Shown one piece after another: positions 5,935 to 61,404 of a stretch of DNA of 64,000 nt. The position numbers and the translations under genes were made by a program. The notes beneath the pieces were generated by a model. That model searched no databases and had not been told where the DNA came from. It saw only the letters and a program-made list of their open reading frames with translations. Source of the DNA: Mytilus edulis (Eukaryota); NCBI RefSeq assembly GCF_963676685.1, contig NC_092348.1:59148001-59212000 (forward strand), read 5' to 3'. Position 1 is the stretch's first letter. Each line of letters starts with the position of its first letter.

Positions 5935-6594
5935 TTTATGAATATCTGTTGCATAACTTATATTTATAATAGAAAGTGTCTATCATTATGTTTCAAAAGG
6001 ACATCCTTTATAAGGAAATAAATGTTCGTTGACATTAGTTCTTTGCCGTTCAAACACACAATATTTAATTTATTTTCCACTTTTTAATCACTCTCTACAT
6101 GTAATCTGATATGATACCCACATTTAAAGTCTTACTTGTTTGTCAACTTCAACGTCGAGTATTTCGTAACAGGTCTTAAAAATTATCCTGACTTGACATA
6201 TATTATATAATTTCAATATTTTTTTATTTCATTCAATACTATTTTTTTATTTCATTCAATACTATTTTTTTAAATCAGTAAATTTTTTTGATATGTAGAC
6301 ATTGCACTTGAGAACTCAAGGGGTAAATTTGTTAAATCATGATTCATAAGCATACTTCTATTTATAAAGCATTCAAAATCATCCATCTGAAACACAGTTT
6401 AAAAAAAACCCACAACCACCCCCTTTATGAAAAGTTTAACTTCAAACTTTCATTAAACATTGATGAGTATAGTATGATTGATTCAAAATCTATTTTCTAG
6501 CACAATTAAATCTAATATTGTGAAGAATGAATTAAATCAACTGCTAAATATTTGAAATAAAACGGAAATACTTATAGGCATACAGCAATTTAAC

Positions 6595-9147
6595 ATGAAA
6601 ACGAAAGAGACAACATCCCTGTTCGCTCTGTCGATCATCACAACAGTAACATTTGTGAAACCAGTATTTCACTGTACATACAAGTGGAATGAAAAACATA
6701 AGCTGGTCGCCAATTGTGAACATCAAGGATTGACATCTGTGCCAAGGAATCTAAGTCGAGATATACAGGAGTTAATACTTTCAAATAACTTGATAAACAT
6801 ACTCAAAAACAATTCATTTATCAAATATTCAAACATGGAAAGGCTGATTTTAAGCAAGAATAAAATATATGAAATTCATGAGGATGCCTTTGTAGGACTT
6901 AATTCGCTTACAGTTTTGAAGGTAAATGATAATTTGATCAACATCACAATTCTCCCAGAAGGAGTATTCAGACATCTTAGTAATTTAATTGCACTGGATA
7001 TAAGTAAAAATAAAAAGCAATTGAATGAAAGCTATCAGTTTATTTATCCCGATGTCACATTTTCTAGATTGGAACACTTGCAGAATCTCTCAATTGATTT
7101 ATACATGTATCCTGTATTCGGTAGAGGATTTATAAAACTTCACAACCTCACCTCATTGGATTTTCATAAATGTTATTTGCGAAATAGTATTGGATTTAAG
7201 CTATGGAATTCAACCTTTGAAAACTTTTCATCAAATCTGAAAGAACTTTATATCAGAGGCTGTCGTCATCTTTTCCTGATGGAATATGGATTACTTGAAC
7301 ATTTTCCTAACTTAAAAATTTTAGACTTATCAAATTCGTACGTACACTTATATCAAGCATTGCGCATTCTTCATCCATATCAGAATAAAAAAATGTCCGT
7401 TATAAACTTTCACCACATAACCGATAGTTCAATCAATGGAAATGATTTTCCTTACTCTGTTGTTATAACAGCAGAAATGATGAAATATATAAGAACTATT
7501 TGTATAGAGTCATTGGACTTGTCGAAAACAGGAATCGTAGATTACCAGGAAAAATCTTTATTTTCGTTCGAGCACCCAAAATGCTTCAAAACCTTTATTA
7601 TGTCTGCTAATAGACTACCGGCAACGATTACAGACCACTACTTTGAAGTAGTTGAATTCATGAAACGTGCTGCTAATATTAAGGTCTACGATTTTTCATA
7701 CCTAACTTCAGATTATCCTGATCCCGTTTATTTAAACGTATACCATCCTGAAACTTTGGATCCTTTTGAAAAAAGAATTCACAACGTTTATTTTTCACCG
7801 GAAGTCAGTATTTTCCTTCCACCGTCTTTAGAATTTCTTCGATTTACTCACACTTCATCAGTCTTTAGTACAGCGTTTATCATATGTTCGAACACCTCGC
7901 TAAGATATCTTGATGTGTCATTTGGTGTCTACAAGCATTTTCCGAATGGGACAGACAGCTGTGGAAAGCAGTTGGAATACTTAGACATTTCAGGAAGTCC
8001 TAAGGCAATCAAAACATTTCCCAGAATTCCCCTGCCAAAACTCGACATCTTAAAAATGGCACATGCACGCATAGACCAATTAATTTTAAAAGGTAAGGAA
8101 TGGATGGTATTCCGAGCACCAAATTTGAGAAAAATAGACATATCTTTCAATAACATTTGGATATTGGAGGAAACAACATTTGTAAATCAGCCAAATATTA
8201 CGCATTTAAACCTGTCAAATAATCTATTCAGGGCCATTCCTACCTTTGTTAAACACCTACACAAATTGGAATATTTAAATCTTTCTAACAATTTGATTGT
8301 TTCCATTAATGATACCATGAGGCGTTGGCTGGATAATGTGTCTTCAAATCGAAAGTTTGTCCTGGACTTGAGTAACAACGATTTGGTGTGTTCGTGTGAT
8401 ACGGTAGACTTCCTTTCGTGGATAGAGAAAAAGAAAGAAATATTTTATGATGCTGACAATTATACATGTACATACACAAAGAAAAGCGAACAAGTCCCAT
8501 TAAAGAAAGTAATAAAAAATAAAAAGAAATACTTTTTATATTGTGAAATAAATATGTGGCTACTTCCTTTATGTATATCAGTTGGAAGTGCGTTTGGTAT
8601 ATTCATACCTCTTTCTCTGCTTTATAACTATAGATGGAAAATAATTCTTCACATGTATAGAAAAGTGAGGCGCGTTGTTGAGAACAATTTACATGAAAAC
8701 TATATGTACGACGCATATGTTTCTTATGAAGACAGAAGCGTAACATGGATTCAAGAGTTTCTTCTCCCAAAAATTGAAGATGAATGGGGGTTGAAAGTGT
8801 TTTTACATGATCGAGATATTCTTCCTGGTGATCTAACAGCAGATGCGAAAGCAGAATCTATTAAAAAAAGCAGACATTTTGTTTTCATCATTACTGAACA
8901 TTTTACCGAAGGAAAATGGGGAAAATTTGAAATAGAAAGAGCAGTGTACGAAAAATGTACTACAAACCTGAGAAAAATAATTGTTATTTTACAAAACATT
9001 CAAGTTAAGGACATTCCAGAAGAAATTGTGAAGATTTCAAATGATGTTTGCTTTATTGAATTACCATTGGATAAAAACGAAATTTATGACAAAACAGATC
9101 ACCAAAGCACCTGGCTAAAGTTACAAGCTCTGTTTTATCTAAATTAG
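6595..9147 (+). CDS. Toll-like receptor, single exon, single-cysteine-cluster type (850 aa)
   Basis: Hydrophobic N-terminus; LRRNT-like NCEHQGLTSVP; many LxxLxLxxN repeats; LRRCT NDLVCSCDTVDFLSW...YTC...C; TM WLLPLCISVGSAFGIFIPLSLLY; TIR box1 YDAYVSY, BB loop HDRDILPG, SRHFVFII and C-terminal W. Uninterrupted ORF; AATAAA follows at ~9223. Confidence 0.97.
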   Translation: MKTKETTSLFALSIITTVTFVKPVFHCTYKWNEKHKLVANCEHQGLTSVPRNLSRDIQELILSNNLINILKNNSFIKYSNMERLILSKNKIYEIHEDAFVGLNSLTVLKVNDNLINITILPEGVFRHLSNLIALDISKNKKQLNESYQFIYPDVTFSRLEHLQNLSIDLYMYPVFGRGFIKLHNLTSLDFHKCYLRNSIGFKLWNSTFENFSSNLKELYIRGCRHLFLMEYGLLEHFPNLKILDLSNSYVHLYQALRILHPYQNKKMSVINFHHITDSSINGNDFPYSVVITAEMMKYIRTICIESLDLSKTGIVDYQEKSLFSFEHPKCFKTFIMSANRLPATITDHYFEVVEFMKRAANIKVYDFSYLTSDYPDPVYLNVYHPETLDPFEKRIHNVYFSPEVSIFLPPSLEFLRFTHTSSVFSTAFIICSNTSLRYLDVSFGVYKHFPNGTDSCGKQLEYLDISGSPKAIKTFPRIPLPKLDILKMAHARIDQLILKGKEWMVFRAPNLRKIDISFNNIWILEETTFVNQPNITHLNLSNNLFRAIPTFVKHLHKLEYLNLSNNLIVSINDTMRRWLDNVSSNRKFVLDLSNNDLVCSCDTVDFLSWIEKKKEIFYDADNYTCTYTKKSEQVPLKKVIKNKKKYFLYCEINMWLLPLCISVGSAFGIFIPLSLLYNYRWKIILHMYRKVRRVVENNLHENYMYDAYVSYEDRSVTWIQEFLLPKIEDEWGLKVFLHDRDILPGDLTADAKAESIKKSRHFVFIITEHFTEGKWGKFEIERAVYEKCTTNLRKIIVILQNIQVKDIPEEIVKISNDVCFIELPLDKNEIYDKTDHQSTWLKLQALFYLN

Positions 9148-12463: not shown

Positions 12464-13131
12464 AAAATCAGATTCCAGACAGGTGCAAAATATTGCAGCG
12501 GGTTTAAACGTGTTAATGATACCAAACCTTCTCCCTTATCTGAAACAATAGTGTAACATCACAAGAAAGAAAGACACTTTGTCTGGATGTATAAAATCAG
12601 GGTACCTGTTCAATTTGACTATCTTTAGTATTATAATACCTCAGTAATTAAACTGAAGGTCCATCAAATATATGCGATATTATACATATCTTGTGGTATA
12701 ATCGCCAATGAGACTGCGCAACAAGGTTGAAAAGTAGACCATTTCAATTCGGTGTTTCTTACAATATCGGTATGAAACAAAACAAATACTTGCAAACAAA
12801 ATCAGATTCCAGACAGGTGCAAAATATTGCAGCGGGTTTAAACGTGTTAATGATACCAAACCTTCTCCCTTATCTGAAACAATAGTGTAACATCACAAGA
12901 AAGAAAGACACTTTGTCTGGATGTATAAAATCAGGGTACCTGTTCAATTTGACTATCTTTAGTATTATAATACCTCAGTAATTAAACTGAAGGTCCATCA
13001 AATATATGCGATATTATACATATCTTGTGGTATAATCGCCAATGAGACTGCGCAACAAGGTTGAAAAGTAGACCATTTCAATTCGGTGTTTCTTACAATA
13101 TCGGTATGAAACAAAACAAATACTTGCAAAC
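12464..13131 (+). repeat. Tandem duplication, 2 x 334 bp, apparently identical
   Basis: aaaatcagattccagacaggtgc starts at both 12464 and 12798; I saw no differences. Confidence 0.93.
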
Positions 13132-17521: not shown

Positions 17522-18559
17522 TGTTAAGTATTATTGTAAGCTACGAATATAAGGCTAGAAATGATAATTTTACCTTTTGATTTAATATAAACAAAAGGTG
17601 AAAAGACTAGCTTTGGTTTTTCTTTATCTTAAATCTGGAAAAAAATAGCAAACTTGCTTTTATGTTTAAGATTGAAAACTGTGATTGGTCGGGTTGTTGT
17701 CTCCTTGACACATTTCCAATTCCCACTGTAAATTTTATACTTCTTATTTTGAAAATTGAAAATTACTTTTTGCACAATAGTATTTTATAACGACGTGAAA
17801 TTAATCAACACATCATAAGCATTATTAAATTTCAAAGTGGGAAAATGCATTGTCAGATTTGTTTCTTCAGAAACGTAGACAATTCGCTGATATCCAGTTA
17901 TACCAAAACTTCGTCGTTTTTAGCAAAGGACAAAGCCTTTACAAAAAATAGAACATATTTCAATCACTTACTAATAGCAAACATTGTATTGTACAAATCT
18001 CAGTCATTTCTCATTACAGGTCACTCAACTGTTCACCACTTTTATAACTATAAACTTTCATAAAAAAAACCAATATATGAGCCATTGCTCCGTGTTGAAG
18101 ACCGTATATTGACCGATAAGGTTTTTTTCTTTTACAAGTTGTCTCATTGGCACTCATACCACATCTTCTTGTATCTATAAAATATAATGACAAGTTCAGA
18201 TGCACTACCTTTTTGTACAAAGGTCAAAAACACAGGGAATTTGAGTATTGTCGCCATTTGTCCTTATTTATAACGTCTTTTAATAGAGTGTAAGGTCATA
18301 CTCAAATTATGTGCTACATGTACCTCTATTTTTACAATGAGTCTTCCTGAAGAATGGGTTTGACTGCTATCCAATTATATTATATACATTTTTTTTTTTT
18401 TTTTTATTTTTTTTTTTTTTTTTGTGATTGTCACAGGTGTGAACAGACGTGAAACAATGTCTCCGTTCTAATCTGATTAACTTGTGGATTTAAATATTAG
18501 TTTCATTTATTTATTGGATATATCAATGCTATGGAAAAGAGTGAACTTTAGTTGCAAAT

Positions 18560-19387
18560 GTGATGCAAAATACACCAAAATACAAGAATAAAAGAACAAG
18601 ATCATCAGAAGGTGAGACCCCTCGTCCCGAAAGTAAACAAACTAAAATGGCCAATGCAGACGATCTTCAGTCCTCTATAAAATCAATTGTTGAAAGTATT
18701 AAAGAAATTAAAGATGGTCAAGACAGTATGAAAAAGATGTTTGAATCGAAAATTGACAAGCCAAGAAATGATGTTATATCTACAATTGACGAAAAAATTC
18801 GAATATTAAAAGATGATATTTATTTAAACATAGCTAAAGAATCGTCACGTTTAGATGACTTGGTGAACTCAGTTCAAACACTTTCAGTACGTGTTGGTCA
18901 TGTTGAAAACTTTACTATTAATCCTACTGACCACAGCTTCAACAATCAATATAATGATCAAGGTGTTAAAGGTAATACACAACCAGCAGACCCGTTAAAC
19001 GATAATGACGTAACGGTAATAGTAAAAAATTTACCATTCACTGAAGGCGAAAATCTCCCAGACAAAGTTCAACAGATGATAGACAGCTTAGGCGAAGTTT
19101 CTTCTCAAATATCAGTGGCTGCAACAAAACGCTTGACAACAAGATTTCACAACAAACCAGGTCTCGTTAAAATCAGTTTTCAAAGCCAGGATCAGAAAAT
19201 ACTTATACTCAGAAATAAATATAAGCTGAAAGATGTTGGTTATTACAAACATGTTTACATCCAATCCTCTAAATCCCGTATTGAACGATTAATCGAAACA
19301 AATACACGCACGATTTTACGGGAATTACCACAAGGCAAATCGTACAGAGTTACCGCAAACGGGAAAATTCTAAAAAAAATCAAATGA
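18560..19387 (+). CDS. LINE ORF1 protein (basic N-terminus, coiled coil, RRM-like region)
   Basis: 275-aa ORF directly upstream of the APE; heptad-like region then VIVKNLP...LVKISF. Confidence 0.75.
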   Translation: MMQNTPKYKNKRTRSSEGETPRPESKQTKMANADDLQSSIKSIVESIKEIKDGQDSMKKMFESKIDKPRNDVISTIDEKIRILKDDIYLNIAKESSRLDDLVNSVQTLSVRVGHVENFTINPTDHSFNNQYNDQGVKGNTQPADPLNDNDVTVIVKNLPFTEGENLPDKVQQMIDSLGEVSSQISVAATKRLTTRFHNKPGLVKISFQSQDQKILILRNKYKLKDVGYYKHVYIQSSKSRIERLIETNTRTILRELPQGKSYRVTANGKILKKIK

Positions 19388-19436: not shown

Positions 19437-22400
19437 GACAACACCCGGAACAGTGGTACTATTAGATTTGGACACTTAAATATTTGCGGATGGACTCAAA
19501 ATAATAAGGAATTACGTACAGAAATTTTAAAGGAAGTGAATGCAGACATTTTTAGTATCTGTGAAACGCATTTGAAAGAAATCGATGAAATTGAAGTTGA
19601 TGGTTATACTTGGAAACGAAGGATTTAATAGACAAAGGCATCAGGTGGTGTAGGACTTTTGATTAAAAACTGGATTTTTGAAGAATATAAATATGAATCG
19701 ATTGATATAATACGAGATGGCGTTATGTGTGGTAAATTTCAGTCAAAAAGCACAGATTTTAACTTTATTGTATTTTCGTGTTACCTACCTCCTGAAAACT
19801 CAGTTTGGGGAAGAGACTCTCAAGGATATTTTGCACACATCTTATCTGATATATACGAACAATGCGATACGGACGCTCTTTTTCTCTGTGGCGATTTTAA
19901 CTCAAGAATAGGATCACTGAAGGATTATTCTGATTTTGATGAATTACCGTCACGATAAGGACATTTTTACCACATGGTAGATTGTGTTTTGTCATAATGT
20001 CGTCTAATCTTTTAATTACCAAACGTGACTTATTCCCGATTGTGACTGTTTTGCCGAGTGTGAACTCGCATTACTATAAGACGTGGTACGGTACTTATCC
20101 ATCCCAAATTCATGTATTTAGTTTAAATGTTTAATGTTATATTTGTAATTCTCATCGGATTTTGTCAAATGTGTTGACGTCTTTTCTATTATATTTATGT
20201 GTTATGGTAAAGAAAATTAATCACCGCCTTCATTTATCAGATTTGATTTCGTTCAAAGTAATCAGTACGATATTTTACGTTTGAAGTTAGATTAATAGCA
20301 AACCGGACATAGTTTTATAATATAGTTAATTGCTACCTCAGTTTTATATAAATAAGAATTAAAGTGTGCTTTGTTTTTAAATGCAATATCAGTATTTAGT
20401 TCAAATATATAATCTTAAATTAATCCTAATTCTATCTTATTCATTCTTATGTGACGTCATTTTTCATTTTTTGATGCTCTGTTTTACTAATTCAAATGAC
20501 GTCATTTTTTCGTCATTTTTCAGTTTCAAATAGGACGTCACTTGGCGTAGAGGTTTAAACGTATTCGGATGTGTCTACTTTTGTGTTTCAAATGTCTGGT
20601 TATGTAAATGTATTTCAGTTGTTTCCTGTAATTAGTTAATACTTCAGCTTTACCATGTACATCTTTTGAATATTCATTTTATTAAATTTACTGTTTGCAA
20701 AAGTATAAATTACTCTAAATTATAGGGATTTTCTGGTAACTTAACAGAAAACCCTTGCCGTTTTTGGCACAACCTTTTTGATCTTTTGGTCCTCGATGCT
20801 GTTCAACTTTGTACTCGTTTCGGCTTTCAAACTTTTGTATCTGTGCATCACACATAGGTCTTGTGTGAACAAAATACACTTCTGGCGTATTAAAATTTTG
20901 AACTTGTTGCCTTTTGTTGGCTGTTGTTCGTGTGATTCTTTGTTAATTGTGTTCTCCAATTTATTTATATTGTAGTCCTGTGTTGTCATTTTGATGTTAT
21001 ATTTCACATGGCCATAAAAGTGCGAGGTTTGGCATGCCACAAAACCAGGTTCAACCCAAACTCATGTATTTGGTTTTGATGTTATATATATTATTCTCGT
21101 GGGATTTTGTCTATGTGTGTTACATTTTAGTGTTATGTCGTTGTTCTCTTATATTTAATGCGTTTCCCTCGGTTTTAGTTTGTTATCCCGATTTTGTTTT
21201 TTGTCCATGGATTTATGAGTTTTGAACAGCGGTATACTACTGTTGCCTTTATTTATCGCTTGATAAAACCGTTAACCAACATGGCAACACCTTCTTGGAA
21301 TTTTTGAACGAATCGAAAATGTGCGTCTTGAATGGAAGATTCGATCAAGATAAAGATAACTTCACATTCATTTCAGGTAGAGGGAAATCCGTGGTAGACT
21401 ACATTTGTGTCCCGCAAGATTTTCTAGACCAGTGTATTTCGTTTGAAACAATCACAACAAGATCTATTGTAGAAAAGGCAAATCTTTTTAACCTCCTTGG
21501 TGAACGTAGCAAACTTCCGGATCATTCAGTCTTGGTAACAGAATTTAGATCTATAAAATCCATATTTACCAACAGCATTCCAGGCAGCCCTACTCAATCA
21601 ACAAAGCGATTTAAATTGAAATTAATGCCAAATGATATGTTTTCTTCCGATATGTGTAAAATTGCATTGCAAAATGTTATAAGTCACATTGAACAAACTA
21701 GAGAAACTCAAGACAATATAGATACTATATACACGGAACGTTGTGATATAATAATACAGGAGATGAACGATAAAATTCCAGTGTTTAACACCAGTGGATC
21801 CTCGAAAAAACGGCTAAAGGTGAAAAAGCAATTTTGGAACGATGACCTACAAACGTTATGGAATGATATGCATTTAAAAGAAAAACAGTATTTAAAGTTC
21901 AAAGGACGTACCCATGTGAAAAATGAACTAAGAACAAAGTTTCAGTTAGCGCAAAAAAACTTTGACCGCAAGCTACGCCAGTATGAAAGGCAATATAAAC
22001 AAAGTATGTGCACTGACATTGAAACTATGACGACGAATAATCCTACGGATTTTTGGAACAAAATCAAACAGCTAGGGCCTCGTAGACATTCCTCTATTCC
22101 AATGGAAATATATGACAAAGATGGTGAGATTGTTAGTGATGAAAAGGTTGTTTTAGAAAAATGGAAAACAGATTTTGAAAATATATATAATATGGATAGT
22201 TCAGCGGACGATTTCGATGGTAATTTTCAAAAATATGCCTCTAGTCATAAAGTCTTATTAGAAGAAAGAATGCTCGATCCTTTGTTTACTGAAAATGAAG
22301 AGTTGAATTCAGCTATAACTATAGATGAAATTAGGCGACTTGTCTCAAGAACAAAAACCGGTAAATCGTGTGGAATTGATAATATCCCTTATGAAGTATT

Positions 22401-24156
22401 GAAGACAGAAAACGTGATCGCCGTCCTATATTCTATGTTTCAACTAGTTTTCGACACGAGCATTGTACCATCATTATGGCACCAGGCCATTATCTGTCCG
22501 ATACTTAAAGACAAATCATCAGATAAACGTATTCCACTACACTATCGAGGAATCAGTTTGTTGTCGTGTGTTTCGAAGCTTTCTGAGGAACAAAACGGCT
22601 TTCGTAAAAATCGTTCATGTGAGGATCATGTATACACCCTTAAAAGCATAATAAAAAACAATCCTAATGTTATTGCCACATTTATTGATCTAAAAAGGCT
22701 TTTGATTTCGTAGATCGTGATATGTTGCTGTACAAACTGTTGCTTAATAATATTGATGGGAAAATATATAACTTTATTAAAAGTTTATATGTGCAAACAA
22801 CCGCAAGTATTCGATTAAACAATAAAATGTCCGATTGGTTTTTATGTAACTCTGGCGTAAAACAAGGTGATAATTTATCTCCGACATTATTTTCTGTTTT
22901 TATTGATGATCTTGTAGATGAAATCAACCAACTTGGACTTGGTATTAATATTGGAGAATGGAAATTGTCTTTACTTTTATATGCGGACGATATTGTTTTG
23001 ATGGCCGAGAATGAATGTGATATGCAAAAGATGCTAGATGAATTACATGATTGGTGTAAAAAATGGAGAGTCTTAATTAATACAGACAAGTCAAAAGTTG
23101 TACGCTTCAGAGCATCTCGCAAAAAAGGAGCAAATTTCAGTTCAGAATCGGAGGGAACATCTTGCAAATTACAGACAAATATAAATCCTTGGAGTTATTT
23201 TTAACGAGAAAAAAGATTATACATCGAATGCTGAAAATCTTTCTGCAGCTGGTGGAAGAGCACTCGGAGCTATTATATCGAAGATACACAGTTTAAAAGA
23301 ATTTGGTATAAAGACTTATGAAAAACTGTATGTCTCTTGTATTGTACCTATACTCGACTACTGTTCTTCAGTGTGGGGTTTTAAAGACTTAAATTGTGTC
23401 GACACTGTTCAAAACAAGGCCATAAGATACTTTTTGGGAGTTCACAAGTTTGCTCCAAAGCTGGCTATCAACGGAGATGTTGGATGGTTACTTTTAAAAG
23501 AACGTCGCAGGTGTAGTATGGTTAGATATTGGAACCGATTGATGGATATGGACAATAGTAGACTTTGTAAAAGGGTGTTCCTATGGGACTACGAATTATC
23601 TACGAACAATTGGTCATCTAGTGTAAGAACAATACTGTCTTTAGTTGGTATGGATGATAACTTTCAACAAATGCTAAAATGTGATGTTAATAGCGTCAGA
23701 AACAATCTTATGGATATATGTGCAACAAAATGGCATACAAACTTATCTAACTTTCCGAAACTTCGTACATACAGAACTTTTAAATCTACATATTCAACAG
23801 AAACATATGTTAAACAAAATTTAAAACGTAGAGAAAGATCGGTACTGGCCCAGTTTAGATGTGGCATTCTTCCGCTAAGATTAGAAACAGGACGTTTTGT
23901 TGGTGAACCAGAATACCAACGGATATGTAGAATGTGCGACTCCGGACATGTTGAAAATGAACTACACTTTCTGATTGAATGCCAATTTTACAATGGACTA
24001 CGTAATCAATTATTCTCTGGACTTAGTGAAACCGTATTAAATTTGAATAACAGTGAAAAGTTAAATTTATTATTGTCAGAATATCCTCGAAAAACAGCTC
24101 GATACTTAGAACATTCCTTAACAAAACGCAGACAACACTTATATTTAAATGATTAA
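19437..24156 (+). pseudogene. LINE ORF2 (endonuclease-reverse transcriptase), disrupted
   Basis: Fragments 19437-19958, 21256-22713, 22722-23204 and 23371-24156 fall in domain order across frameshifts. Confidence 0.9.
19957..21253 (+). mobile_element. Non-autonomous composite element (Helitron/Helentron-like) inserted in the LINE endonuclease
   Basis: Removing it restores the frame (ELPSR-L-SLDKTVNQHG) with a T^T junction and no TSD. A short 3' hairpin aacagcggta/tactactgtt precedes the end. A second copy lies at 51557-52620 (-). Confidence 0.75.
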
Positions 24157-31175: not shown

Positions 31176-31509
31176 CATACGCATATTAACCAGCCAGAAT
31201 ACATGCTGTTATGGTTTCGTTACACAGTAATACAAAGATAAATATGATTTTTATAAGATATTATTCAAACTTAATAGAATTCTTTTCTTTATTTACTATT
31301 AGATCCCAATAAACAACTTTAATTTTTACACTTATTGCAATACATACGCATATTAACCAGCCAGAATACATGCTGTTATGGTTTCGTTACACAGTAATAC
31401 AAAGATAAATATGATTTTTATAAGATATTATTCAAACTTAATAGAATTCTTTTCTTTATTTACTATTAGATCCCAATAAACAACTTTAATTTTTACACTT
31501 ATTGCAATA
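31176..31509 (+). repeat. Tandem duplication, 2 x 167 bp, apparently identical
   Basis: catacgcatattaaccagccag starts at both 31176 and 31343. Confidence 0.93.
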
Positions 31510-42672: not shown

Positions 42673-42959
42673 TTTGTATTATGCGAGGCCTATTAAAAGT
42701 GAAAAAAAGGTTTCAAGTAAACAGTTTTAAGTTTCATAGTATCAAAAATTTCACACTCGACCAACACTACATTAAACTTTGTTTTGTAAATTAGCGTGAC
42801 TGTACTTCTTTGTTTCTGCCTTGACTATAAGATTAAAATGAAATTTTATTATAGTTCATTTACCACTGTATTACCCAAACAATCTCCATGTTATGAATTC
42901 CCGGTAAAAGATGCTTACGGAACACCGACAAATGTCCTTGGCGAAAAAATAACGTTGTG

Positions 42960-43075
42960 TTAAATACGGCTAAGGTTATCTATGCCTGGGATAATAAAAT
43001 CCTTAGTTTTTCGAACAATTCAAAGTTTTGTAAACAGGGAAATTTATAAAAATGACCACATTATTGATATTCATG
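42960..43075 (-). mobile_element. Internal fragment of the retrozyme-like repeat, no hammerhead
   Basis: Reverse complement matches ~54848-54965 (atatcaat...ggtc.tttttataa...cctgtttacaaa...actaaggat...accttagc). Confidence 0.65.
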
Positions 43076-46741: not shown

Positions 46742-48261
46742 AAATCAATCTGTAGTAGATATTAATTGTGTCCACTTTTAGCAAAATCTCTGCTGTACTG
46801 ATATATGCCCATGCCAAGGAAGTGGTCTTTGTATGAATATGTGGACTGATAAGAATTATGAGATTACAAGTGAAAATGAAGCTGTAATATTCCGATATCG
46901 CAATATTCTGACACAACTAAATGGTCTGACATCCCATTGGTTTGACGTTTCGATCATTAAATTAAAATTATGATAACGGAATATTAACATAAGAAAGCCA
47001 AATAAAAGGTTCAATATTAGGATAACCTTGTCCTTCGTTTGAAGTGGTGAAACAATTTATAAAAAGGTAAGTATATTAGTGCCAAAGTAGCCGAACGTCA
47101 TCACCGGCGTCATTAAAAGTACAAAGTACTTTGTAAAGTGTTGTTTGATTAAAATTAGATATCTCAAGATTCAAGGCGGTCGACCAAAGTAAAATTAAAC
47201 ACAGTTTGACGTACAATGAGTGATCATTTTTTCCTTGTGATGTTTTTTTTATCAAAATTGTCTATTTGTTGATATAAATATACTAATATCACTTAACTCA
47301 TTTTAGTAATGTTAGTTAGTACTCTTATCATATCTGATTCAGTGATGTAAACGAAATTGCGGTATGATCCAGACTCATCATTTTGCACTACAACAATAAT
47401 AAAAAAAAATGTCCTATGGTTATTTGATGCTGACGCGGTTTGCAGGCTTTCGAACTAACAGTAGAACATACGTTTCTTCCATTTTAATGTAAAGTTCATC
47501 ATGATACCTTTCTATTAAATTAAAAATTCGTCATAGGTTATATTTTCCCCTTGCTTCAAATATTTTGTTTCGGTTTATTTATATCAAAATTGCAGATATA
47601 CATGTTTGTAAATGCGTGCAATCAGTTGATATGGAGGTCTTATAAGATTTAAATAATGCAAGGGCGACTACAGATACATTTGTGTGACTTAATGGTTGAT
47701 TTTCAAAGACTCCGAGAGAAAACGTTACGTAACATACGTTACCGTTAAAATCGACCAAAATAAATTAATACTATGATAGAAATATATTTTCCCAACAGTA
47801 ATACAGTATTCCTATAGTATTGTTTCGTTTTTGCACATGTTTTGACTCGATATTTCTACTGGAGGTATCCATGAATAGAAATTGCATCCATGACCTTTGA
47901 CCCCGATTTTAAACAAAATTGCACCATGATTTCTTTTAACGACCGGGATATTTAGAAAGTACACATTCTCAGCTTTCCAGTGATATATAATTTAGCCATA
48001 TGTTAGGTAGGTGCATTACAAATGTAAATTTGGCTCTCATATGACTCGCCTATACAACACTACAAAGCAAAATAACCACGTTTCGAGCAGCGGTATACTA
48101 CTGTTGCCTATAATTTGTATTTTTCTAACTTAAAACAAAGGACAGCCATGTATCCATAAAGTACCCAGAAACTTAGGATTTCAACAAAAGTGAGACAATG
48201 AAATGTTTTATTTTAAGGAACAGACAGTAGGAGAAATGCTCAAACTGCTTAAAAGTTATTT

Positions 48262-48447
48262 TAGTACGACGAAAACATGAATAATAATTAGAGGACACCA
48301 ATAACGTGATTCATAATTAGGGTACGCCGATAACGTGATTCATAATTAGAGTACGTCGATAACATGATTCATAATCAGAGTTCGCCGAAAACATGATTCA
48401 TAATTAGAGTACGACGGAAACATGATTCATAACAAGAGTACACCGAA
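48262..48447 (+). repeat. 29-bp minisatellite, ~6 copies
   Basis: Unit ~ataacatgattcataattagagtacgccg at 48301, 48330, 48359, 48388 and 48417. Confidence 0.85.
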
Positions 48448-50148
48448 CACATTAAGTATACACATTTTACCTGTATAATCCAAAATCCTTTTGGTTATTG
48501 TTGTCGTTAGACTGTTATTTCAAACTCGATTCGCATATACCATGGACATAATTATACAAAATCATTGATATGAACATTTTGGCTCACAATTTTTTTTCCA
48601 CCGGCAAAAGGCAAAAATGTTCGCTAGTTTAATCAAATAATAACATCAAAGTCACTATTTTTGTCAGGGAAGGACTATTTTTTATTATGTTCTTAGTTGA
48701 AGTGGGAGAAGTGGTGGTCTGAAACTTTTATTCCTAGAAGTTTAACATACATTTTCAGATCACAAAAATTGACTGTCAGTTCTTTTCGTCAAGTTTTAAC
48801 TTCTTTAACACTCTCCATTCTGGTTTATGTTTATTTTCTCATTCGTTCATAAATGATCATAACTTGATGGAAACTAAATTTTTATGACAATAGTTTAAAT
48901 GTCACAATCATAATAGCTCATTGTTTTAGAAACTCGGCGTTATTAAACTTTAAAACCATAAAAGATCCTAAAAAAAAAACAATTTACGTATACTTTAAAT
49001 TTATTTAACCATTTTTTCAAATATAGTTTAACAAATTTAATATATACGATTGATGATCTTCTTTTAATACAAAACAACAAAAAAATCAGATAAAACACTT
49101 TTATGACTTTTATAGTCACGATTTGCACTTGTAGATCGTCAATTTCCTGTAGTCAACCAGGTATATGGGAAAAACAAACGCGACACATTTATTTTTAAAA
49201 GTCATGCTACAGATATGATAATAAGAAAAACATATAAAACAGATAATGAAGTACAAAAAATGGATAGTAAAACAGACCTAAGCACACCCATCCTTCCATG
49301 CAACAAACTTTTAAGAGAAACAAAACAAGCAATTAAAGATATATCACAAATAAGTACCAAATATAGAAAGTTAGGTTTAGATATACATGTAAAGCCAGAA
49401 ACTCTTTTTTTCAGAGAACATATAAAAATGGTGAAAACTAAAACTACAAGAAAATCAATGTTCATGTATATTAACATAGGTTTCTGTATAAATGACAGCA
49501 TATCCTCGAGGATTTGAAGTTCGTTACCCTAAACGGAAAGGAAAAACACAATCTTGGTGCAAATGTTATCCACTGTGAATTCAAATATTCTTTACTTAGT
49601 TGCAAACAATCTGATATTTTAATTGAGGAATAAATGAAGTTTCTGCGATTTTTGTCAAAAAGGATTCAAAATTCCTTTGAATTTATTTCATTTCCGAAAG
49701 AATTTCTCAATCGATTTCCATCGTTTGTATCCACAGCGTTCATATTGTTAAACATTTTCTAATAAGAACGTTAATTTGATTAAAATGTATAAAAATTGCA
49801 AGTATTTATAAACGGTTTTTTTAATGGTCTAGAAATCAACCATGGTATTGTTACATTCTAAAAGAACACATTGGAACACATCGTTTGTTTATGTGTTACA
49901 TTTTTGTTTTTCGTTCATTTTTTTTTTAATATAAATAAGGCCGTTAGTTTTCTCGTTTGAATTGTTTTACATTGTCTTATCGGGGCCTTTGATAGCTGAC
50001 CATGCTCATTGTTGAAGGCCGTACGGTGTCCTATAGTTGTTAATGTCTGTGTCATTTTGGTCTCTTGTGGACAGTTGTCTCATTGGCAATTACCTTCTTT
50101 TTTTATACAATTGAAACTTTGATATTGTACATTTATTTATTATAACAA

Positions 50149-50335
50149 AACTTCATCAAACTAGATACATTTTATACCAAGATTTAAATATTGTAAACCA
50201 GACGCGTTTTGTCTGCAAAAGACTTATAAATGACGCTCGAATCAAAAAGGGGAAGTACAGTACCAAGTTGCATTGAAGAGCATTGAGAACCCAAAATTCC
50301 GAAAGGTTTTGTCAAATAAGGCTAAGGTATATCTT
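50149..50335 (-). mobile_element. Decayed partial retrozyme-like copy
   Basis: Reverse complement reads tcgagcgtca-tttataa-gtcttttgcagac-aaaa-cgcgtctgg; the core is destroyed. Confidence 0.7.
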
Positions 50336-51556: not shown

Positions 51557-52620
51557 AAATAAAGTCAACAGTAGTATACCTTTGTTCAAAACTTATAAAT
51601 CGATAGAAAAAAACAAACAAATCCGGGTTACAAACTAAAACTGAGGGACAGGCATTAAATATTAGAGGAGAACAATGACACAACATTAAAATGTAACACA
51701 CAGAGAAACGAACTAAGCATTAGACAAAATCCGACGAGAATAACAAATATAACATCAAAACTAAATACATGAATTTGGGATAGAAAATTCCGTGACACGT
51801 CTTATAATAATGTGAATTCACCCTAAGATATAAGAGGAAACAAACTGCATAAAAGAAACACAACGTTAAAATGTAACACACACATAAACGAACTATAATA
51901 TTACAATGGCCATATTCCTGACTTGTATTTGGTACAGGACATTTTTTAAAGAAAAAAATTGTGGGTTGAACCTGGTTTTGTGGCATGCCAAACCTTCCGC
52001 TTTAATGGCAATGTTAAAAATAACATTAAAATGACAACACAACATTACAGGACTACAATACACATAAATAGGAGAACATATTAGACAAAGAAACACACGA
52101 ATAATACCTAACAAAAAGGCACCAGGTTTAAAATTTAATACGTCAGAAGTGCGTTTCGTCCACATAAGACTTACTAGTGACGCCCAGATACAAAAGTTCG
52201 AAAGCCCAAACAAGTACAAAGTCGAACAACGATGAGGACCAAACGTTGAAAAAAGTTGTGCCACATACGGCTAGGGTTTTCTGCTTGGGATAAGAACATC
52301 CTTATTATTTAGAATAATTTATACTTTTGCAAACAGTAAATTTTATAAAATGACCATATAATAGATATACATGATAAAAAGTATTAACAAATTAAAAAAG
52401 ACCAAACCGGATACATTACATAAACCAACATAATCCAACACAAAGAATAGACACACACGAGTTAGTCAAGGCCTTAACGCAAAAAGTGACGTCACATTTG
52501 AAATTGTAAAAAAGGCCAAAAAATTACGTCACATTTGAATTTCTAAATCAGTACACAAAAAAAAATACGTAACATTTGAATGACTAAAACTATTTGTCAA
52601 AAATAAGATAGAATTAGGAT
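51557..52620 (-). mobile_element. Second copy of the composite Helitron-like element
   Basis: Reverse-complement homology to 20423-21253, including the 3' hairpin and an embedded decayed hammerhead at 52141-52184. Confidence 0.75.
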
Positions 52621-54537: not shown

Positions 54538-54689
54538 GTGATTATAAAGATGCAGCTGTTACCAAAGCATACGAGTCTCTGTTGCTGCTTACACCCTTAC
54601 AACCAGACAACATTGAACATAAAATATTCTCTGATGAGGTCAAACTGAGAGCACAGAGAGATTACGGATACACGTTTGGAGTAGACGAG
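54538..54689 (+). CDS. Receptor guanylate cyclase, exon 4
   Basis: ctctttaag|; GDYKDAAVTKAYESLLLLT...RAQRDYGYTFGVDE; donor GAG|GTATGG; phase 1-0. Confidence 0.9.
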
Positions 54690-54719
54690 GTATGGTATAT
54701 GTCCTTGTATTTTATTGGT

Positions 54720-55120
54720 GTCTGGCGTATAAATTATAATTCTGGTACCTTTGCTAACTTTTTTACACCACTGGGTTGATGCCACTGCTGTTGGACGTTT
54801 CGTCCCCGAGGGTATCACCAACCCAGTAGTCAGCACTTCGGTGTTGACATCAAATATCAATTATATGGTCGTTTTTATAATTTCCTGTTTACAAATGTAC
54901 CAAACTTTGAATGTTTGGAAAAACTAAGGATTTCTTATCACAGGTGTATATTACCTTAGCGTATTGGGGACAACCTTTCGAAATTTTGGGTCCTCAATGC
55001 TCTTCAACTTTGTACTTGTTTGACTTTCAACTGTTTTGCTATGAGCGTCACTGATAAGTCTTATGTAGACGAATCGCGCGTCTGGCGTATTATATTATAA
55101 TCCTGGTACCTTTGACAACT
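54720..55120 (+). mobile_element. Retrozyme-like repeat, one full ~360-nt monomer; its hammerhead core (55046-55087) is mutated
   Basis: GTCTGGCGTAT...TATAAT(T/C)CTGGTACCTTTG occurs at 54720 and 55080, a 360-nt period from cleavage site to cleavage site. The core reads CUGAUAA...GAAU. Confidence 0.8.
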
Positions 55121-56631
55121 TTTCTTTTGTACTTATATTCACAGATTATTTTTTAAAAGATTATAAATTCGATGCATCACCATCATTGTAATATAAAGAT
55201 GGTCCGTCTTTTCAGTCGAAATTGTTTTTGAATTTTTTTTGGCTGTAAATATGTTTCTGGATTTTTTTGGGGGTATAAAATAGATAAACAAATATTGATT
55301 GAATAGAATAGAATAGAATAGAGAACGAAAAAGAGAGAGTGTCAAAGATACAAAAACCCGAACAAACAGCAGAAACAGGCCACGGCCACCAAAAGGTCTT
55401 TAACATAACGAGAAAATCTCATGCTTGAGCTTACTCTTAAACAATAATGAATTGAATGACTATTGAACTCTTTGCAAACATATTATAAGTTTATCAAGAA
55501 GTTCAAAGCATATTATTAATAAAATATTATGGTTAGAAAGTGAACGTTGAACAGTTGACCTTTGTTCGCCTTTAATAAAAGATAACTGATGAAAGAACAG
55601 AATGGGAACCAGACCTTCGTATGATCATGTTTAAAATATATTGAGGGATTACATTTCATAAAAGGGTTTGAAAGACCTTTTGCGGGCGTCAGGACTTGGC
55701 CTTTATTTCGCGAATATCGGGATATTCTCTTATCGGGATTCGGCAATTGATAATTAATATTTTGCGACCCAGAATAGAATGTTTTATTTTTTTCTCTGAA
55801 AAATTAGGATAAACCCTCTGTTTATGTCACTTTTATTAAGAAACTAGATATTACAAGCCATATTCAATTAACAAGTTATTACAACTACTGTAGATCACTA
55901 TTAGATAGGCGTTCCGAAAAGAACCCAAGGACAAATGTGGTGAGGATCGAATGATATCAATCAGTTTGCCTATCGTAAAGTTTATTGATACACTCGTTGA
56001 TTCAATTCCGTTTATGTAGATCCGATAGAGATTATAAATTATACAAATATTATATGATATCGAGTACTTAGTTCATTAGTTTTATTTATTATGATCAGTT
56101 TTCTTCTGTCATAAAAACTAATGGCAGCAACATGTTATGCATTAATCAACTTTATATGTTAATACAACTAGAAAAAGAACAGATATTGAGTGAAAACAAC
56201 ATGAAAAGCCTTTACTCGAAGACGTGATCGGATGCAAATCGTATGAAGAGGATGTAATAGGATACCATATTTATTTTTTTAACTTTTAGTTGTAAAGATC
56301 ATCTTATAATCAAAATAAATTTTGTTGGAGACAACAACGCACAGATACAATATATCTTAAATATCTATATGATTTATTTTAGAGTTAAATTTCAATGGAT
56401 ACTTTTTGAATTTACTTGAATACAAAAATTGAGTGGTTTAATTGAAAATGTCCTAATTCTTTTTACAAGTACATTTGGAATAAAGTTTATAACGTTTTAA
56501 ATAACAGTTTTTATGAGCTCCCCCTTTTTGGAATTGTCTTGGAGTTCTGTATTATTTTTCGTAAAGTGAATCTTTTAAACAAAGAAAGCCTAATCATAGC
56601 AGACAATGTCGCCAAATGACAAATATATTTT

Positions 56632-58480: not shown

Positions 58481-58600
58481 TTCAACTTTGTACTTGTTTG
58501 GCTTTATAAATATTTTGATATGGGCGTCACTGATGAGTCTTATGTAGCCGAAACGCGCGTCTGGCGCATTAAATTGTAATCCTGGTACATTTGATAACTA
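58481..58600 (+). mobile_element. Partial retrozyme-like repeat copy
   Basis: ttcaactttgtacttgtttg...hammerhead...aatcctggtacatttgataact matches 55002-55120. Confidence 0.8.
58524..58567 (+). ncRNA. Minimal type I hammerhead ribozyme, intact core, one stem II mismatch
   Basis: GCGUCA-CUGAUGA-GUCU(uaugu)AGCC-GAAA-CGCGCG-UC^UGGCGC; predicted cleavage after 58561. Confidence 0.85.
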
Positions 58601-59114
58601 TATAACTATAATAGGTATGGTCTTCACTAAAAGAAGAAAATTATGCACCAGTCGCCAAGGAAGTAAAGTTTCCATAACATAACATTTTATAAATATAATA
58701 ACTTGACAAATAATCCAAACGCCTAATTACTACTTTTCTTATAACTGCCTTTTCAAGTTAGATCATAATCACATCTATGAAATATATGTTTAGCTTACAT
58801 GTCTATATGTATTATAGAATTTAGATCAACTATACGAGGTTTCTAGTCATACCCTAATTATGATGACTTACATGGCTTTTTTATACAGGCCGTCCTTCTA
58901 CGACACAAACAGGAAGGCAATCAAGCAAAAACCAAAAGAAGCCTTCCATAAAGTAATCTTTATTCGAACTACTAGATTTTCATCTAGACACATTTGACTG
59001 CTAGACCGTGTGACATTTATAACATTATATGAATTTAAAAATTCAAAATGTAGCTACTAGCAAAATATAAGCTTATTCATGACCTGTCTATGTTTTACCT
59101 TTTCTTATCTATAG

Positions 59115-60296: not shown

Positions 60297-61058
60297 GTAC
60301 GACTGGTGTTGTTTTTCTTGTTGTGTAACCTAATTGCCCGTGTTGTTTTTTTAAAATTAGTGTTTTCAATAATCCCTTATCCCTTAATTCCCTTGCTTAT
60401 ACAACCGACACATACCACTTTCATATTATTTTGTTTGCAACGGGCCGTTTTTACTGGCCAGATCAATGAGAATATTATCTACAACCATTTACATAATTTA
60501 TACGTTTCTAATTCATAGTGCTTATCTTATAAATTATACTAACCAGTATTCAACCTGACCCATTGGAATGAAAATGAACCACTTTAAAGAAAATGTGTTA
60601 TAACATGAGTGGTTTTTGAAAGACGTTGCAATTATGACGAAATATTTCGCCGTATTGGGATATTGTATTGAATTATATTAATAGCTGATTTAACTTAGAA
60701 CAGTAAAGAAAGGAGAAAAAACGGAAATCTTAATATGCAGTTCCGTATAAGATGGGTAAAACTGAAACATTTCATGGAAAAGTAGCTCGCCATAGTGTTT
60801 GTTCGGTATAATATGCTGTCATTTCATAAATAAAATATTGCAAATGAAAAAAATCAATATCATCAGCTATATATATTTGTAACTTTGGCTCAATGTAATG
60901 TAAATTCTGCGGAAACACTTTTTCATTACTCTAACTGCTGTTGTCAGAGCTTTTGTATTTAGTAGAGGGAAAATACGATGTAACAATATGAATTAATTAG
61001 TTACTTTTTAAAATATCAAATTATACCATGAATGTTCTTTTTATGAATTTTTTGAGAT

Positions 61059-61271
61059 AATAAGGCTTTTCTACCTCAGGCATAGATTACCTTAGCTGTA
61101 TTTGGCAACACTTTTAGGAATTTTGGATCTCAATGCTCTTCAACTTTGTACTTTATTTGGCTTTTTTCATTTTTTTAGGATTCGAGCGTCACTGATGAGT
61201 CTTTTGTAGACGAAACGCGCGTCTGGCGTATATTCAAAATGAAGTCCTGGTATATATGATGAGTTTATTTA
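61059..61271 (+). mobile_element. Partial retrozyme-like repeat copy
   Basis: Colinear with 54925-55120 (ttaccttagc...caatgctcttcaactttgtactt...hammerhead). Confidence 0.8.
61187..61228 (+). ncRNA. Minimal type I hammerhead ribozyme, intact core
   Basis: CGUCA-CUGAUGA-GUCU(uuugu)AGAC-GAAA-CGCGCG-UC^UGGCG. Stem I CGUCA/UGGCG, 4-bp stem II, palindromic stem III, predicted GUC cleavage after 61223. Confidence 0.9.
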
Positions 61272-61404
61272 TAAAAAGACTATCTTGCATTTTCACTTAT
61301 ATTTTTTCTTCCTTATATCCTCATTATGCCTTTGTGACTTAACTGATATTACTATTTTAACTGCAATGTTTGTCTCTCTGAGGTTCAATTGATTTACATT
61401 TCAG

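Follow-up and report, generated by a model that had tools for sequence, protein, structure and literature searches.

An old, 5′-truncated retrozyme with a mutated hammerhead core lies in an intron at 54720..55122 (+) of the window, the whole stretch of 64,000 nucleotides of Mytilus edulis DNA that was analysed, and it was likely written by the reverse transcriptase (RT) of a Naiad, a Penelope-like element, which would bind the retrozyme RNA at a stem-loop and begin to copy it about 40 nt past the self-cleavage site. We place the probability of this reading at roughly 0.78. The copy is an old, dead member of the mussel non-LTR retrozyme family described in the part of the paper available to us (PMC7229834). 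The window locus itself is ordinary, and it is the anatomy of the family that carries the interest.

The preliminary description of the locus had placed two GTC^TGGCG cleavage motifs 360 nt apart, and GTCTGGCG is indeed found at 54720 and again at 55080. Compared with a young unit, the insert consists of 3 nt upstream of the first junction, one full 360-nt unit, and about 40 nt that end at the fixed 3′ end of the family, so that family sequence runs from 54720 to about 55122 and the described terminal redundancy of approximately 40 nt is real. The stretch from the cleavage site to the fixed end occurs first at 54723..54763 (+), and its terminal copy, which would mark the start of reverse transcription, spans 55083..55122 (+). 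A predicted three-helix stem-loop, also present at the 5′ start of Naiad elements and likely the RT recognition signal, occupies 54770..54827 (+). The retrozyme identity that had been proposed is supported, and the ORFs of at least 30 aa that overlap the insert are only 47–87 aa long, in agreement with the earlier statement that there is no ORF of note.

The type I hammerhead lies at 55045..55088 (+), with the cut after 55082. Its core carries substitutions at 55056 and 55074, reading CUGAUAA (55051–55057, G8 to A) and GAAU (55071–55074), as had been reported. G8 and A15.1 are required for hammerhead catalysis. Young units match the Rfam family Hammerhead_1 (RF00163) with 33 bits (gathering threshold 34; E 2.5e-5), the window copy gave no match at E ≤ 1, and the entire window gave 0 Rfam matches at the gathering threshold. 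Single-strand folding of the window hammerhead did not rise above that of shuffled sequences (z −0.23). The hammerhead core sits on the 5′ side of the cut, and none precedes the first triplet, so the insert contains one hammerhead only. One junction therefore has no core and the core of the other is mutated, and the window copy is predicted to be inactive and unable to release a monomer.

The redundant 44-nt ends of the insert differ at 5 positions, the best young units share 88% identity with the copy, and three other DNA runs, under two organism labels, have contigs across both insertion junctions. These results indicate that the insertion is old and shared. No empty allele of the locus was seen in the three other DNA runs covering the flanks.

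Four further fragments in the window had been assigned to one family and derived from this insert. Two of them belong to its family: a short 5′-truncated copy at 58481..58604 (+), which reaches the fixed 3′ end (+43), and an internal fragment at 42951..43075 (−; noted earlier at 42960), which corresponds to unit positions 126–248 and has neither hammerhead nor tail. They are 91% and 89% identical to a young unit, respectively. The other two are assigned to a sister family. The copy at 61044..61273 (+; noted at 61059) is 5′-truncated with an intact core and by eye closely matches a published 375-nt mussel retrozyme (available portion of PMC4918200, Additional file 11), in which hammerhead arms, tail and stem-loop of the same type are seen; the decayed fragment at 50175..50334 (−; noted at 50149) probably belongs there as well (loop II type), its assignment being uncertain. 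The match to the 375-nt sequence indicates that the family is known and that the flagged copy, old and dead, represents a shorter sister type of 353–356 nt; the size of a published 353-nt construct, as given in the available text, agrees with this unit. The flagged insert does not serve as the source of the other pieces, since it scores below a young unit against every fragment.

Upstream of the insert lies a probable coding exon of a host gene at 54538..54689 (+), with a GT donor at 54690. The donor is thus 30 nt upstream of the insert, as previously stated, and a weak paralogue (40% identity, E 0.009), whose donor falls at the identical codon, supports its position. The exon product showed a weak, non-significant likeness to a natriuretic-peptide-receptor ectodomain in a structure database (E 0.49) and no Pfam match, and no variants fall inside the exon among those listed for three other runs. 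No sign was seen that the adjacency of insert and donor matters. Elsewhere in the window, an 863-codon open frame at 6556–9144 (+) with leucine-rich repeats and a TIR domain represents a Toll-like receptor gene. Open frames of 280, 495 and 323 codons at 18545–19384, 21226–22710 and 23185–24153 (+) have no convincing Pfam match; from their motifs they may be pieces of a LINE-type element. A 29-nt tandem repeat occupies 48229–48460, and perfect duplications of 300 nt and 167 nt lie at 12464–13097 and 31176–31509.

The ends of family members were sampled across the genome (1.37 Gb), in which a mid-unit 23-mer has 7,927 exact copies. Thirty loci taken through this 23-mer, regardless of their ends, represented 27 insertions (one pair being a segmental duplicate), and 22 of the 27 have their 3′ ends at +39..+46 past the cleavage site; the remaining five end at +18, +18, +186, +315 and +340. 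Array 3′ ends fall at +38..+46 in 16 of 17 scorable cases (20 array regions, less three that ran off the edge of the region). The fixed-terminus pattern has at least 6,216 exact matches, against 0 for the control. The approximately 40 nt that had been read as an overshoot past a full circle are therefore the fixed 3′ end of the family. The two ends at +18 may mark a minor second start site, comparable to the two sites of the anole element.

The 5′ ends, conversely, are scattered. Ninety of the first 100 termini listed were scored and seven were dropped (2 duplicates and 5 internally deleted copies), leaving 83 insertions. Their lengths are exponentially distributed with a median of 219 nt (KS p = 0.57); at least one cleavage junction is crossed in 80 of the 83, and two are crossed in 21. 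None of the 83 starts exactly at the cut. Five start within −5..0 compared with 2.3 expected (P = 0.09), a possible slight excess. Among copies truncated near the junction, about 68 of the 100 listed (of 712) are true truncations as judged by eye, and these spread evenly over the 14-nt window −13..0, with about 7 at position 0. No pile-up of 5′ ends at the cut was found in either sample.

These distributions bear on the reading originally offered for the insert, namely that a circular monomer copied once, with the cleavage site as start or end point and a short overshoot, left this specific footprint. The 5′ end of the window copy 3 nt before a junction and the slight excess at −5..0 are what such a footprint would give, and the template did span the cleavage junction, so that this part of the reading stands. 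The start at the triplet does not: 5′ ends follow an exponential decay with 0 of 83 at the cut, the near-junction truncations are flat, and the overhang is fixed family-wide rather than random. In addition, the fitted chance of the window build is 0.5% per insertion, from which about 30 copies are expected among 6,216, and of 30 loci selected because their 5′ end lies near a junction, 7 have one unit plus tail. The one-round footprint is thus largely refuted and very improbable. The 5′ end at the triplet arose by truncation of the ordinary kind, and it is the 3′ overhang that marks the family.

At 12 of 90 insertions an empty site could be recovered from host repeats, and by eye these show anything from a duplication of about 4 nt to a loss of about 7 nt; no poly(A) was found at the same 12. 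An inverted 5′ arm, an optional feature of many Penelope-like insertions, was found at 0 of 90 when the 200 nt next to the 5′ end were tested with 15-mers; single short cases were seen. The ends look as target-primed reverse transcription would leave them if it began at a fixed internal site, as demonstrated in vitro for the anole element Poseidon (available part of PMC11167929).

The search for an enzyme that could use this start combined a GIY-YIG search with 20 fetched regions and yielded, among the matches listed, one Naiad and five intact families whose endonuclease is C-terminal. Of these six Penelope-like families, the retrozyme unit matched the Naiad only, just before its start codon. 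A full-length copy of this first Naiad, with a 1053-codon open frame and pLTRs 99.5% identical, has its own 3′ end immediately before the matching element. Open frames of 1007 and 1000 codons mark two more intact Naiad families, in which the element holds the equivalent position. In all three, which share open frames of 1000–1053 codons, an N-terminal GIY-YIG domain and near-identical pLTRs, a stem-loop of about 60 nt follows the fixed end and precedes the ORF. The 5′ start of the youngest Naiad aligns with unit positions 40–107 of the retrozyme, from the fixed end, at 87% over 69 nt (E 3.8e-17), the second family matches at 73%, and the third at 82% over 34 nt. Local alignment scores were 89, 40 and 36 for the Naiads and 17–23 for the five C-terminal-endonuclease families, with shuffled maxima of 24–27. 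The hammerhead core found no match in the three Naiads.

The families with a C-terminal endonuclease were rejected as helpers, the element being absent in the five checked. No hammerhead core was found in their ends with a simple descriptor, which may miss minimal forms. All five are young, with intact frames of 755–959 codons and many tandem or inverted pairs.

The young Naiad has 12,709 exact 3′ ends; among the first 100 listed, 98 halt before the element and 2 continue into it. Both partners, retrozyme and Naiad, end 6–9 nt before the outer stem. In an alignment of nine sequences (six retrozyme-type and three Naiad), a small and related set from which the structure itself was drawn, the three-helix fold has 94% of its cells paired and 9 of 20 base pairs changed on both sides, compared with at most 51% pairing in slid controls. 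The fold is kept in at least four retrozyme families that have no ORF, and the copies inspected end just before it. In the portion of the PMC8557442 supplement available, at least 15 named Naiad consensus sequences, of Acropora, oyster, mussel and hemichordate origin, open with the same motif. The Naiad element gave no meaningful match to an Rfam family, and a metagenome scan for it returned 120 stretches resembling chance matches. Beyond the flagged family, at least three retrozyme families in the genome have differing hammerhead arms and tails, and all of them carry this stem-loop about 35–45 nt past the cut.

The stem-loop shared by retrozymes and three Naiads, in each case after the fixed end, makes the Naiad RT the likely agent of retrozyme mobilisation, starting internally on a template that is either circular or uncleaved. 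This partner assignment draws on common sequence, structure and end position. It is improbable that the stem-loop is instead an internal promoter or translation element acquired from Naiad while another enzyme does the copying. Such a role would suit the place of the element just before the Naiad start codon and the internal promoters reported at this boundary in other Penelope-like elements (available sections of PMC8557442), but it would not account for retention of the fold in ORF-less retrozymes of at least four families whose inspected copies end just before it, for the paired changes, which indicate an RNA structure, or for the 6–9 nt that separate both partners' ends from the outer stem.

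The window also holds two copies of a Naiad 3′ UTR, at 20380–21237 (+) and 51574–52620 (−). The 1-kb repeat at about 20380 and 51555 had been considered Helitron-like; that assignment was dropped, the repeat being this UTR. The 3′ UTR of this Naiad family carries as a passenger a dead retrozyme segment, from about unit position 105 to +14..+44, which in the window lies at 20633..20897 (+), in a copy 98.7% identical to an intact Naiad, and at 52103..52373 (−) in an older copy. Across the genome, 8,483 first-look candidates for the UTR with its passenger were counted. An origin of the retrozyme from the Naiad UTR by deletion was judged less likely than an old insertion into the UTR, because the UTR segment halts at the fixed end and the retrozyme stem-loop is nearer to that of another Naiad family (87% versus 73%).

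The following course of events would produce the pattern. The Naiad endonuclease would nick AT-rich DNA, and the enzyme, bound to the retrozyme stem-loop, would prime internally 6–9 nt upstream of the outer stem. The RT would then copy 40 nt, pass the cleavage/ligation junction and continue until falling off. Since a cleaved linear monomer has only 40 nt upstream of the start, longer copies would require either a circular template or an oligomer left uncleaved. The signal, being downstream of the start, would not be copied until the enzyme had gone once all the way round, and this would account for the tandems or circles of both partners. For the window copy, the enzyme would have halted 3 nt beyond the second junction by chance, the core mutations arising afterwards.

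As to the template, we lean, with limited confidence, towards retrozymes being RNA circles that parasitise hammerhead-free Naiads by means of a Naiad-like stem-loop, which would position the RT start just upstream and be inherited only after a full round, with the hammerhead making the circle that enables rolling-circle reverse transcription. Tandem arrays, for which the preliminary description had proposed a search, are present in the genome with a period of 353–357 nt and up to 21 junctions. Cores are intact in 236 of 240 counted, some overlapping loci having been counted repeatedly, so that cleavage appears to be selected. One array has 11 units, all identical, with the fixed 3′ end and a truncated 5′ end; in two others 6 of 7 and 5 of 6 units are identical, and short arrays were seen with identical units and private variants. 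Conversely, arrays of 19 and 16 units contain 15 and 13 distinct units, variants recur in non-adjacent units, and some units are nearer to units of other arrays than to their neighbours. As a test for circles, within-array identity thus had a mixed outcome.

These heterogeneous arrays fit a tentative alternative, which we regard as the less probable one, in which the enzyme and the start site are the same, the template is an uncleaved tandem-array transcript or multimeric RNA, and long arrays grow by later unequal exchange. According to the accessible part of PMC11167929, unprocessed RNA is the main substrate of the anole element and cleavage is dispensable, and in the available text of PMC7229834 cleavage by the mussel hammerhead is slow, about 0.1 per min. 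The uniform 11-unit array with its defined ends and the short arrays with private variants, however, speak against such a template, as do the apparent selection for cleavage and the report in the same available text that in mussel tissue the RNA is predominantly circular.

Two further features of individual arrays were observed. In one array, a common mutation has destroyed the cleavage triplet at two internal junctions while the last junction is intact, which could reflect either a multimeric template or later duplication. The arrays at C8:1442266-1445532 and C6:92563786-92576390 show an apparent higher-order periodicity (a three-unit repeat, and segmental repeats ending near +87).

RNA of the family, also proposed for search, was found in a related organism, not in that of the present genome: three raw RNA runs gave 6,227, 7,062 and 10,607 family reads on the young unit. 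The reads are mostly sense in all three runs and include back-joints of 354/355 nt, which fit circles or tandem-array transcripts. In the one run of the three for which they were listed, read ends at the first base past the cut amount to 117 molecules at a depth of 490.

The comparison with described mussel retrozymes showed that the family is already known. Cervera and de la Pena report, in the part of PMC7229834 available, repeats of 350–390 nt in Mytilus galloprovincialis with two hammerhead families and abundant circles, the latter demonstrated by Northern blot. The present family is alike in its tandem units of that size range, its type I hammerhead, its two related families, its low GC, its lack of an ORF and its thousands of copies. 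The Penelope hypothesis for retrozymes is in print (PMC7229834 and PMC7761336, as available); in the accessible text of the former, Penelope-like helpers are proposed with the clade unnamed, and the fixed 3′ end and the recognition element are not described. Naiads have an N-terminal GIY-YIG domain and RT, a pLTR/tandem build and 5′ truncation, with no canonical hammerhead and no clear target duplication, and the element found here stands at the start of their published consensus sequences; a conserved 5′ stem-loop or a Naiad-dependent retrozyme is not described in the available part of that work (PMC8557442).

For Anolis Poseidon, internal initiation has been shown in vitro with a binding region downstream of the start (available part of PMC11167929). 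Poseidon and the mussel retrozyme are alike in a fixed internal start downstream of the hammerhead cut, in needing RNA 3′ of the start, and in AT-rich targets. Poseidon differs in being autonomous, with a C-terminal endonuclease, its own hammerhead and two start sites that give a 30–40-nt tail, whereas the mussel RNA is non-coding and has one dominant site (2 of 27 ends at +18). Xenopus retrozymes, described in the accessible portion of a preprint (10.64898/2026.07.22.740005) as non-autonomous derivatives of Penelope-like pLTRs, likewise depend on Penelope-like elements and have sequence in common with their ends. That preprint is vertebrate-centred and its available text holds 0 mentions of Mytilus, mussel, tail or initiation. 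In the mussel case, by contrast, the likely helper is hammerhead-free and only the start signal is in common.

Overall, the family is already described; in the openly accessible literature searched, neither Naiad as a retrozyme helper nor the stem-loop element was found. The results bear on which enzyme returns animal retrozyme circles to DNA, and on the RNA signal recognised by the Penelope-like RT, the sister group of telomerase; both questions now have a 60-nt element, a defined start and intact candidate enzymes to work with. The likely helper lacks a hammerhead, which suggests that the hammerhead and the copying signal are of separate origin. If mussel retrozymes do parasitise Naiads, a Naiad-type stem-loop conserved from corals to hemichordates would be exploited by their RNA circles.
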